A stretch of 64,000 nt of DNA. Source: an uncultured Chlamydiae bacterium. Lineage in GTDB: Bacteria > Chlamydiota > Chlamydiia > Chlamydiales > Parachlamydiaceae. The notes below the pieces were generated by a model. It was given only the letters and a program-made list of their open reading frames with translations. It ran no database searches and was not told the origin of the DNA. Positions within the stretch are counted from its first letter, which is position 1, and every line of letters starts with the position of its first letter. The stretch spans positions 1,152,001 through 1,216,000 of the forward strand of contig CAVWGN010000001.1 of NCBI GenBank assembly GCA_963754655.1, read 5' to 3'. The translations under genes were made by a program, and so were the position numbers. Below, in pieces: positions 59,906-62,383 of the stretch.

Positions 59906-62383
59906 ATGAATATAGGAATTTCAAATCATTATCCTGAACAAGTCAGTGTACCGTTTATTAATGATGCAGAAGTAAATTCTGTGAAAAAGTCCAAGAAAAA
60001 ATGGACAGACGTTGAAAGTGCGCAATTGAGTAATTATATAGAAGAATTTGGAAAGAACTGGAAGAGAATTGCAGAGAACATGCCCGGTACAACTCCTAAA
60101 CAGTGCAAGTATCATTGGATACGTGTATTGAACCCTACGATTAAACATGGAAAATGGACACAAGAGGAAGATGAGCAATTGCAAAACTTTGTGGATCCCA
60201 CTATCAAACACGAAAAATGGACAGAAGACGAAGATGAGCAATTAAAAAACCTTGTAGATCAATATGGAGAAAAGTGGATAGAGATAGCTAAAGAGATGTC
60301 GGGTAGAACGAATATACAGTGTCGTGAACACTATAAGAACACTTTAAATCCCACTATCAAACACGGAAAATGGACAGAAGAAGAAGATGAGCAATTAAAA
60401 AACCTTGTGAATCAACATGGAGAAAAGTGGGCAGAGATAGCCAAAAAGATGCTGGGTAGAACGGATGTTCACTGTCGTAACCGCTATAAGCGGACTTTAA
60501 ACCCCGCTATCAAACGGGGAAAATGGACAGAAAAAGAAGATGAGCAATTGCAAAACCTTGTGGATCAATATGGAGAAAAGTGGGCAAAGATAGCTAAAGA
60601 GATGCCGGGTAGAACGGATATGCAATGCTATCACCACTATAAGACTTTTAATCCCACTATCAAACACGAAAAATGGACAGAAGAAGAAGATGAGCAATTG
60701 AAAAACCTTGTGGATCAACATGGAGAAAATTGGGTAAAAATAGCTAAAGAGATGCCGGGTAGAACGAATATTCAGTGTGGTCAACGCTATAAGAAAAGTT
60801 TAAACCCCGCTATTAAACAAGGAAAATGGACAGAAGGGGAAAATGAGCAATTGAAAAACCTTGTGGATCAATATGGAGAAAAATGGGCAGAGATAGCCAA
60901 AGAGATACCTGGTAGAACAGATATTCAGTGTAGGCAACACTATAAGAAGACTTTAAACCCTATTATCAAACAAGAAAAGTGGACAAAAGAAGAAGATGAG
61001 CAATTGAAAAACCTTGTGGATCAATATGGAGAAAATTGGACAAAAATAGCCAAAGAGATGTCGGGTAGAACAGATCATCAGTGCCGTCAACACTATAAGA
61101 CTTTAAACTCCGCTCTCAAACGAGGAAAATGGACAGAAGAGGAAGATGAGCAATTGAAAAACCTTGTGGATCAATATGGAGAAAATTGGACAAAAATAGC
61201 CAAAGAGATGTCGGGTAGAACAGATCATCAGTGCCGTCAACACTATAAGACTTTAAACTCCGCTCTCAAACGAGGAAAATGGACAGAAGAGGAAGATGAG
61301 CAATTGAAAAACCTTGTGGATCAATATGGAGAAAATTGGACAAAAATAGCCAAAGGGGTGTCGGGTAGAACAGACGATCAGTGCCGTTATCACTATAAGA
61401 CTTTAAACCTCGCTATCAAACACGAAAAATGGACAGAAGAAGAAGATAAGCAATTGAAAAACCTTGTGGATCAATATGGAGAAAAATGGGCAGAGATAGC
61501 CAAAGAGATGTCGGGTAGAACGGATCTTCAGTGTAAACAACGCTATAAGCAGACTTTAAATCCCACTATCAAACACGAAAAATGGACAGAAAAAGAAGAT
61601 GAGCAATTGAAAAACCTTGTGGATCAACATGGAGAAAATTGGGTAAAAATAGCTAAAGAGATGCCGGGTAGAACGAATATGCAATGCAATCACCACTATA
61701 AGAGGACTTTAAATCCCGTTATCAAAAAGGGAAAATGGACAAAAGAAGAAGATGCGCAATTGAAAAACCTTGTGGATCAACATGGAGAAAATTGGACAAA
61801 AATAGCCAAAGAGATGTCGGGTAGAACAGACGATCAATGCCGTTATCAATATAAGACTTTAAACTCCGCTCTCAAACAGGGAAAATGGACAGAAGAAGAA
61901 GATAATCAATTAAAAGAAGCCATTCAACGCATCGGAGAAGGTCAATGGGCCCTCATTGCACAGGAATTTTTTGATAAAACATCTGAGCAATGTGCCTATC
62001 ATTGGGAAATATTGAAGCCAAAATCTAATAAGAAACATTCGAGAAGCGAAACACATTTTCCTATTGAAGAAAGACCCTTAAAAAAATTTAAAAAAAATCA
62101 TTCCCCTCAATTGTTAGATCTTGATGAAAATAAAATTTCTTTAGATAAGCAATCTACTCGAGTAGATCAGTCTCAGTTTGTTTTATTAAATCAAGCAATT
62201 CCTCAACATTTAGAAGAGCCGATAGATGCGATTGTTGTGAGTTCTACTGTTCAGCAATCATTGAACTATGAAGAGGAGCCCTTTATTGCTGAACACGATT
62301 TATCTCCTACAGAGCAGGAGTGGACTTCTATACATGTAGAACAGCAGATGATTTCTAATGAAATTAATGATTTTATCCTTTAA
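59906..62383 (+). CDS. Tandem Myb/SANT-repeat protein (13 full repeats plus one half) with NLS-like clusters and acidic tail; candidate nuclear T3SS effector
   Basis: Repeat consensus KWTEEEDEQLKNLVDQYGE(K/N)WxxIAKEM(S/P)GRTxxQCxxxYKxTLNP matches the eukaryotic Myb repeat. KPKSNKKHSR and RPLKKFKK follow the array. Confidence 0.92.
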   Translation: MNIGISNHYPEQVSVPFINDAEVNSVKKSKKKWTDVESAQLSNYIEEFGKNWKRIAENMPGTTPKQCKYHWIRVLNPTIKHGKWTQEEDEQLQNFVDPTIKHEKWTEDEDEQLKNLVDQYGEKWIEIAKEMSGRTNIQCREHYKNTLNPTIKHGKWTEEEDEQLKNLVNQHGEKWAEIAKKMLGRTDVHCRNRYKRTLNPAIKRGKWTEKEDEQLQNLVDQYGEKWAKIAKEMPGRTDMQCYHHYKTFNPTIKHEKWTEEEDEQLKNLVDQHGENWVKIAKEMPGRTNIQCGQRYKKSLNPAIKQGKWTEGENEQLKNLVDQYGEKWAEIAKEIPGRTDIQCRQHYKKTLNPIIKQEKWTKEEDEQLKNLVDQYGENWTKIAKEMSGRTDHQCRQHYKTLNSALKRGKWTEEEDEQLKNLVDQYGENWTKIAKEMSGRTDHQCRQHYKTLNSALKRGKWTEEEDEQLKNLVDQYGENWTKIAKGVSGRTDDQCRYHYKTLNLAIKHEKWTEEEDKQLKNLVDQYGEKWAEIAKEMSGRTDLQCKQRYKQTLNPTIKHEKWTEKEDEQLKNLVDQHGENWVKIAKEMPGRTNMQCNHHYKRTLNPVIKKGKWTKEEDAQLKNLVDQHGENWTKIAKEMSGRTDDQCRYQYKTLNSALKQGKWTEEEDNQLKEAIQRIGEGQWALIAQEFFDKTSEQCAYHWEILKPKSNKKHSRSETHFPIEERPLKKFKKNHSPQLLDLDENKISLDKQSTRVDQSQFVLLNQAIPQHLEEPIDAIVVSSTVQQSLNYEEEPFIAEHDLSPTEQEWTSIHVEQQMISNEINDFIL
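59993..62023 (+). repeat. Coding tandem array of 150/153-bp units
   Basis: Unit starts 59993, 60146 (half), 60209, 60362, 60515, 60665, 60818, 60971, 61121, 61271, 61421, 61574, 61727, 61877. Confidence 0.95.

Follow-up and report, generated by a model that had tools for sequence, protein, structure and literature searches.

The P1 gene, which encodes an 825-aa poly-Myb protein, lies in a 64,000-nt window of the genome of an uncultured member of the Parachlamydiaceae (assembly GCA_963754655.1, contig CAVWGN010000001.1), downstream of and divergent from a gene for an 838-aa YidC protein (56717–59233). The genome comprises 3.16 Mb in two contigs; its chromosome is a single 3.12-Mb contig, of which the window is positions 1152001–1216000. 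Coordinates refer to the window unless marked as contig positions. P1 matches the Pfam family PF00249 (Myb_DNA-binding) in 13 stretches with 686 bits (cut-off 24.4). With unit boundaries set two residues before each first Trp, the protein comprises 14 Myb units: eleven internal ones, preceded by a divergent first unit and a half unit of 21 aa and followed by a last unit that is again divergent (Table 1). None of the 11 full internal units has lost W, W, C, Y, or the GRT motif. An initial annotation of this array had described recent duplication, deletion and module shuffling; its repeat n is unit R(n+1) of our map, from R03 onward. The two length classes that it distinguished emerge from our map as well, with R05, R08, R09, R10, and R13 having 50 aa and R03, R04, R06, R07, R11, and R12 having 51 aa, and every dipeptide that it listed after the second Trp (IE, AE, AK, VK, and TK) is present. 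A single-sequence AlphaFold2 model of the whole protein has a mean predicted local distance difference test score (pLDDT) of 36 and a predicted template modelling score (pTM) of 0.22, too low for use; the putative three-helix Myb fold of the units is assigned from 42% identity to c-Myb alone. The leader and the C-terminal part have no family match, and the C-terminal 121 aa gave no usable match in the ESM Atlas.

Table 1. Features of the P1 gene and its surroundings (window coordinates)
Feature	Position	Strand	Remarks
Promoter-like site TTGATA-17-TAATAT	59832..59860	+	consensus scan; 46 nt upstream of P1 start codon
P1 coding sequence, 825-aa poly-Myb protein	59906..62383	+	single open reading frame, stop codon included
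P1 leader, 30 codons (MNIGISNHY...)	59906..59995	+	kept by every paralogue of the cluster; candidate signal for secretion
R01, divergent first Myb unit, three Trp	59996..60148	+	once in every family member
R02, 21-aa half unit	60149..60211	+	helix 1 start joined to linker PTIKH; junction at ATC 60195-60197
R03-R13, eleven internal units, 50 or 51 aa, Trp-Trp-Tyr type	60212..61879	+	79-97% DNA identity
Shared tract R06/R12	60650..60771 = 61559-61680	+	122 nt, one mismatch, offset 909 nt (6 units)
Exactly 150-nt-periodic tract, 2.43 periods	60992..61355	+	covers R08, R09, and R10 up to its nt 82
R14, divergent last Myb unit	61880..62038	+	three Trp, GEGQW insertion
P1 C-terminal part, 114 aa	62039..62383	+	basic cluster RPLKKFKK, then acidic tail (last 60 aa with isoelectric point, pI, 4.05)
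P2 5' end (P2 = 547 aa)	63669..64000	+	whole P2 at contig 1215669-1217312

The array carries the marks of recent duplication. The exact 150-bp periodicity reported in the middle of P1 is borne out: the tract is exactly periodic because the gene matches itself at an offset of 150 nt over 214 nt (60992–61205), and the next longest runs at offsets of 150 or 153 nt measure 37–40 nt. Between R08 and R09 there are four differences, all within 60975–60991, and R09 and R10 are identical over their first 82 nt, with 11 differences in the next 68 nt, so the edges of the duplicated segments fall within units. We take this tract to represent the most recent duplication or duplications in P1. Sharing also reaches across the array. 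The tract common to R06 and R12 crosses the R05/R06 and R11/R12 boundaries and has an exact core of 88 nt (60684–60771 = 61593–61680), which confirms at the DNA level the segment that the initial annotation had noticed in these two units. The peptide motifs that it reported in further non-adjacent repeats are likewise present, MQCxHHYK in R05 and R12 and DDQCRY in R10 and R13. Much of the sharing of unit heads stems from the helix 1–2 region, which is near-uniform family-wide. A regular higher-order repeat was also considered, given a period of 456 found by Tandem Repeats Finder and a length pattern of 51-51-50, and was rejected as the unit identities agree with it only in part; we read the period as block duplications.

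The half unit R02 is a private feature of P1. Its 63 nt are absent from all six comparable paralogues, namely those with an intact 5' part (P2, P3, P4, P5, P6a, and P7), and P2 has a full unit at its place, as had been noted earlier. The junction sequence is GTGGATCCCACT. ATC is found at the left junction site in 11 of 11 internal units of P1 and at the right site (AAT-CCC) in four of 11, and a 34-nt exact match (60195–60228 = 60651–60684, the R05/R06 boundary) begins precisely at the junction ATC. The proposal that an in-frame deletion of ~90 nt at an ATC microhomology created the half unit, from a former full unit, fits the sequence; taken by itself, a microhomology of three bases is weak support. 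A one-step out-of-register duplication of 63 nt is an admissible alternative route; by hand comparison, the would-be 63-nt copies are only as alike as any two units, with roughly 11 differences in 63 nt.

P1 opens a row of seven tandem paralogues, all on one strand, that spans 18.5 kb in total. Five of the others are intact (547, 524, 584, 471, and 608 aa). P6 is split by an insertion sequence (IS) at contig 1224216–1226007 that encodes a resolvase-type serine recombinase (PF00239, 8.8e-17) and a TnpB protein (OrfB_IS605, 3.1e-26; Cas12f1-like TNB, 2.2e-22), a layout that we classify from its genes as IS607-type. Outside the cluster, the family is counted as six dispersed copies or fragments; such copies are found at ~1.355–1.360 Mb (three genes with three units each) and at 1.633, 2.447 (a fragment), 2.466, and 2.583 Mb. 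Family members share the leader, the first unit, one to 12 internal units, the last unit, the RPLKKFKK cluster, and the C-terminal part. Their similarity extends into ~200 nt of upstream sequence, which aligns across ten members and includes a GAGAG-type ribosome-binding site and the promoter-like TTGATA-17-TAATAT; in a consensus scan, the number of promoter-like sites in the region was not above that in shuffled sequences. The GC content of the Myb cluster equals the genome value of 0.388.

Rearrangements of the kind seen in P1 recur among the paralogues. Exact tracts at offsets of whole units occur in P4 (137 nt at 456), P7 (96 nt at 303), and P2 (70 nt at 150), and block duplications of one, two, three, and six units are found among P1, P2, P4, and P7. 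The 137-nt match in P4 (contig 1220227–1220819) is a recent duplication of a three-unit block, which has given rise to two units that differ by one residue. The ends of the genes are mosaic: the 3' part of P1 (R14 and the C-terminal part) is 96.0% identical to that of P5, the 5' part of P1 is closest to P4 (90.5%), as is that of P5 (93.0%), and an exact match of 91 nt links unit R07 of P1 to a unit of P3. In P2, a 72-nt in-frame deletion removes helix 3 of the last Myb unit and the basic stretch that follows; going by its sequence, it adds a further rearrangement of the type seen in the P1 half unit. The 3' end of P3 (contig 1217677–1219339) appears to be frameshifted, as the family's last 35 residues match another frame just past the stop codon, and P4 ends early at its 3' end. 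The three-unit member D2 (contig 1357583–1358785) has a short tandem peptide run in its C-terminal part, in which PIYP is repeated.

To score these exchanges, we applied Sawyer's condensed-fragment test to polymorphic sites, with permutation of sites. Among the 11 units of P1, the observed sum of squared condensed fragments (SSCF) was reached in none of 5000 permutations and the maximum condensed fragment (MCF) in one; for the 47 internal units of the family, the counts were one (SSCF) and zero (MCF) of 1000. The maximum chi-square test singled out R06/R12, with one mismatch in 104 nt followed by 15 in 49, a contrast that no permutation out of 5000 equalled; R08/R09 (6/5000) and R09/R10 (35/5000) followed. 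Weaker pairs were R05/R12 (87), P1_6/P3_6 (351), R10/R13 (433), and P4_3/P4_6 (1351 of 5000). The nearest neighbours of the head and the tail of a unit agree in only seven of the 47 units, compared with 11.9 ± 2.0 for random site partitions (seven or fewer in 12 of 1000). When whole units are compared, 20 of the 47 have their nearest neighbour in their own gene, where 6.0 would be expected at random. The shared segments exceed the permutation controls and are real at the DNA level.

We next asked where the units vary, using an alignment of the 47 internal units with 51 columns. Eight residues are invariant in all 47 (W3, Q10, L11, W22, I25, R32, C37, and Y41); the first and last units have W-W-W at the three aromatic positions. 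In the alignment to a c-Myb orthologue, the conserved Cys falls on C130 and Tyr41 on W134/W185, in what we take to be the c-Myb numbering of these Trp residues; the spacing of the named contact residues fits it. c-Myb contacts bases through K128, E132, N136, N179, K182, N183, N186, and S187 (PMC3203581), which by alignment defines columns 35, 38, 39, 42, and 43 as contact columns. These rank 1, 3, 5, 11, and 2 of 51 in entropy (Mann-Whitney p = 3e-4 for the 47 units and p = 0.0045 for P1 alone). The ratio of nonsynonymous to synonymous polymorphism (pN/pS) is 1.14 at these predefined columns (bootstrap 0.95–1.44) as opposed to 0.42 elsewhere; an earlier value of 1.46 had come from columns picked for their variability, which is circular, and was replaced. 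For the internal units as a whole pN/pS is 0.52, with 0.37–0.59 per segment; it is about 0.5 in the leader (0.53, seven paralogues), the first unit, and the last unit, and 0.74 in the C-terminal part. The positions that make base contacts in c-Myb change freely, so that few units have a contact set in common: the 47 units hold 44 distinct five-residue sets, and the three repeated sets are recent duplicates. These patterns indicate a Myb scaffold under purifying selection with a contact face that is either free or diversifying.

This distribution bears on two functional proposals made for the array. The first, that the length class sets the spacing between subsites, fails: the residue missing from the 50-aa units is that in column 43 (or 44, depending on gap placement by BLAST), at the C-terminal end of the recognition helix and not in the linker. 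In the 51-aa register, column 43 corresponds to N136/S187 of c-Myb, a base-contact position. The second, that recombination between repeats reprograms target specificity, stands as far as the process is concerned, as duplication, in-frame rearrangement, and segment exchange are real and family-wide. The concentration of variation at the columns aligned with c-Myb base contacts helps the claim about specificity, which we consider plausible. The dipeptide after the second Trp is not the main variable site; its first residue (column 23) corresponds to A167 of c-Myb, which makes a phosphate contact (PMC2673439).

Sequence searches place the closest relatives of P1 in its own genome. In a search of 5.8 billion proteins, the only close relatives were paralogues on the contig of the source genome. 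They were followed by metagenomic poly-Myb proteins (35–40% identity) and then by eukaryotic MYB4R1, Myb-like L, and SNAPc-like proteins; the best identity outside the family is 35–37%. A pattern scan of genome contigs gave one weak, unrelated match. Among 41 related genomes, four match a P1 query, the source genome included, and none of the three from the same genus does. PF00249 matches nine of 201 genomes of the order, of which the source genome holds at least 33 domains scored of 119 candidates and the other eight one to three each, and none of 14 control bacterial and archaeal genomes. In a soil-metagenome run (9% of sampled words), 18 short contigs fall on P1, ten of them at least 99% alike; the contigs include stretches identical to it at 60552–60700 (no differences) and at 60762–60872, with a depth of 2–6, which points to the same or a very close organism in that sample, perhaps the source of the genome and perhaps not. 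None of the 18 spans the exact tract, and they neither confirm nor refute the unit count.

The neighbourhood suggests how the cluster came to lie where it does. The nearest relatives of the YidC protein are from Parachlamydiaceae metagenome-assembled genomes. In ten of 16 relatives' loci, a Ser/Thr kinase gene lies next to yidC in divergent orientation, at a distance of 0.16–2.8 kb; here the kinase gene lies beyond the cluster (contig 1229749–1231782), 18.5 kb from yidC. None of the 16 yidC loci contains a Myb match. The adjacency of the two genes in relatives that have no Myb gene there therefore marks the cluster as an insertion or expansion at that intergenic site. Between P1 and P2, at 62611–63214, lies an inverted repeat whose 281-nt arms match perfectly and are separated by 42 nt. 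One arm has 441 blastn matches along the chromosome, often as facing pairs, and the repeat therefore looks like a massively amplified palindromic element similar to miniature inverted-repeat transposable elements. Each arm scores 36.4 bits against the Rfam family Acido-Lenti-1 (RF01687; gathering score 37).

Several known systems resemble P1 in part. With the three-repeat protein c-Myb (R1R2R3; PDB 1H88, 1MSE) it has in common units of 50–52 aa, three spaced aromatic residues, the Cys aligned with C130, and, in the smallest family members, the number of units; the two align with 42% identity over 146 aa, with a PDB sequence match of 9e-31. P1 differs in having 14 units rather than three, Tyr as the third aromatic residue of the internal units, and a bacterial gene. 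A canonical Myb-binding site is not expected for P1 because K128, K182, and N183 are not kept, and we rejected a c-Myb-type R2R3 recogniser of that site on the same grounds. SNAPC4 (SNAP190) has a fixed set of 4.5 Myb repeats, with a natural half repeat, in addition to the non-Myb regions of this subunit. It is the best sequence match of P1 among solved structures (7xur, 4.6e-33), and one of its repeats has Tyr as the third aromatic residue; plant MYB4R1 and Myb-like protein L are the best named matches in the large protein database. The likeness to SNAPC4 is limited to the Myb region, and the P1 half unit is a recent private event. When the first, an internal, and the last unit were compared by BLAST with 13 eukaryotic Myb proteins, identity was 27–55% to all repeats (30–55% to every repeat of SNAPC4-like and c-Myb-like proteins), with no clear one-to-one correspondence. 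Orthology of the three unit types to particular SNAPC4 or c-Myb repeats was therefore not assigned. P1 was also rejected as a SNAPC4 orthologue, as its leader and C-terminal part are unmatched in addition.

The metagenomic poly-Myb proteins (P0008, P0009, P0011, P0012, P0013, and P0017) are the best non-self matches of P1 and have at least eight Myb units with similar GRT-x-QC-x-x-RW helices. They come from short contigs and differ from P1 in being Ala/Gly-rich, in having Trp as the third aromatic residue and longer linkers, and in lacking the leader and C-terminal part of the P1 family. In mode of evolution, P1 resembles tandem C2H2 zinc-finger arrays such as PRDM9, minisatellite-like DNA-binding arrays in which unequal recombination occurs and change is focused on base-contact residues; the fold is unrelated and the hosts are animals, not a bacterium. 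Transcription activator-like (TAL) effectors carry basic clusters and an acidic C-terminus, a layout that P1 resembles. Those of Xanthomonas and the RipTAL/Bat proteins are also bacterial, consist of near-identical tandem units and vary mainly at base-specifying positions, a likeness of working and not of descent. TAL arrays are rearranged by recombination between repeats, which has been described as a route to new specificity (PMC7845958). P1 is not itself a TAL effector, a class with 33–35-aa repeats, a repeat-variable di-residue, and one repeat per base: it shares neither sequence nor fold with them, its 50/51-aa Myb units are encoded by 150 nt and not 102 nt, and its 44 contact sets in 47 units form no small alphabet. 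The analogy extends to the evolutionary mode only.

The closest precedent in the same bacterial family is provided by the NEX/PEX families of Parachlamydiaceae (F-box, BTB, and leucine-rich repeat proteins), for which species-specific tandem expansions, birth-and-death evolution, purifying selection, and tests for recombination have been described; these expanded eukaryote-like families carry type III signals in their first 20 codons (PMC4209131). The Myb family likewise has a eukaryote-like domain, a species-specific copy number, and tandem gene arrays. It differs in the domain itself and in having expanded within the gene too, by amplification of units. The word Myb does not occur in the main text of that article.

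From these comparisons we consider it on balance probable that P1 is the largest member of a lineage-specific, eukaryote-like poly-Myb family that is likely secreted and evolves by unequal recombination and gene conversion. The family would have begun with an ancestor of three units (first, middle, and last), as kept by the dispersed copies D1, D2, D3, and D7, whose middle unit was then amplified, in P1 to eleven full copies and a half unit. The sequences show arrays that lengthen and shorten through unequal homologous recombination or slippage between units of ~150 nt, one, two, three, or six units at a time; crossovers within units have left chimeric units, gene conversion or crossover among the tandem paralogues has made their ends mosaic, and occasional illegitimate in-frame deletions have occurred, as in P2 (72 nt) and probably at the P1 half unit. 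By analogy, the proteins are predicted to be exported into the host cell by a type III system, to enter the nucleus via their basic clusters, to use several repeats at once to bind long composite sites on DNA, and to act via the acidic C-terminal tail, in which case a rearrangement of units would alter the bound site. Host-DNA-acting exported proteins are suggested by the conserved leader, the presence of the gene for the type III export gate (FHIPEP) in the source genome, the basic clusters, the low pI of the tail, and the precedent of the expanded families (PMC4209131). Each unit has a charge dipole, with –4.3 over residues 1–20 and +3.8 from residue 32 to the end.

A number of observations weigh against this reading. 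The units are near neutral overall (+0.38) and the whole proteins have pI values of 6.4–8.9. The pairwise homoplasy index (PHI) test is weak for P1 (43/2000 at w = 5); for the 47 units it does not reach significance, and its power is low here because incompatibility is high everywhere. The permutation tests that move sites assume even rates, and the tail of the unit is more variable than its head. At R02, a deletion and a partial duplication both fit the sequence. The bootstrap interval at the contact columns includes 1, so relaxed constraint explains their variation as well as diversifying selection does. The residues for the key contacts to the canonical site, Lys128 in R2 and Lys182 and Asn183 in R3 (PMC2673439; PMC3203581), are rare in the family, with Lys in three of 47 units at column 35 and in two at column 38 and Asn in one at column 39. 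Finally, the absence of the family from all three same-genus genomes and the state of P3 (frameshifted), P4 (ending early), and P6 (IS-split) fit non-adaptive birth and death.

Neutral birth and death is the main rival, although we think it unlikely. In this alternative, recombination expands and decays the arrays and the cluster without adaptive retargeting, and the helix variation reflects relaxed constraint; few or no units would bind DNA, the rest serving as spacers or as a SANT-like surface for binding proteins or histones. A contact-column pN/pS of about 1, the loss of the c-Myb key residues, and the absence of the family from the three same-genus genomes all agree with it, as do the damaged copies, to which P2 without helix 3 of its last unit may be added; non-adaptive processes have been suggested to contribute to such families (PMC4209131). 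Against it stand the purifying selection on the scaffold in every segment of the 47 units, the residues and motif retained in all 11 full internal units of P1, and a reading frame in P1 that survives all rearrangements. Variation, moreover, does not extend over the whole surface and peaks on the i, i+3, i+4, i+8 face of helix 3, which faces DNA in c-Myb.

A bolder proposal, which we regard as rather improbable, is that these proteins are Myb-based equivalents of TAL effectors, with secreted units that would each read a few base pairs by five helix-3 positions, up to 13 units that would specify a long host site, and recombination that would write new sites. Less probable again is that the proteins are not exported and serve the bacterium itself, either in its nucleoid or as DNA-binding regulators. 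The bacterial-type upstream regions and the promoter-like site would suit it; against it stand the rarity of Myb_DNA-binding in the order and its absence from the control genomes, nearest relatives that are eukaryotic proteins, basic clusters and an acidic tail with no obvious role in a bacterium, and a family that is dispensable in sister species. We see a slim chance that the periodic tract is an assembly artefact, its units miscounted or homogenised by polishing, as it is in frame, has edges within units and ordinary divergence on both sides, is joined by similar independent exact tracts at other offsets in P2, P4, and P7, and belongs to a chromosome assembled as one contig. A misjoin of eukaryotic host DNA, to which the eukaryotic or eukaryote-like closest non-self relatives might point, is very improbable, as the cluster lies inside the 3.12-Mb contig between yidC and the kinase gene, syntenic in relatives, has the GC content of the genome, uninterrupted reading frames preceded by ribosome-binding sites, and a bacterial IS in one copy, and reaches just 35–37% identity to anything outside.

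We found no description of a bacterial poly-Myb array in full-text literature searches, whose scope excluded subscription journals and supplements; Myb-like transcription factor genes are mentioned in passing among the eukaryote-like genes of clostridial endosymbionts of protists (PMC10579323). Read as a probably secreted poly-Myb family shaped by recombination, P1 and its paralogues offer a natural example of array growth from three units by amplification of one, in which the steps (block duplications, chimeric units, mosaics between paralogues, and microhomology deletions) can be read. Should the units bind DNA in series, the arrays would make up a natural graded set, of three to 14 units with 44 contact sets, with which the reading of long sites by poly-Myb proteins, those of eukaryotes included, could be tested; if TAL-like reading were true, these contact sets would be a ready library for deriving a Myb recognition code. 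Amoeba-associated chlamydiae are known for families of eukaryote-like effectors, mostly ubiquitin-related or with protein-binding repeats. To this repertoire, some 13 private genes with some 80 Myb units between them would contribute a DNA-binding class, whose members are possible nucleomodulins.

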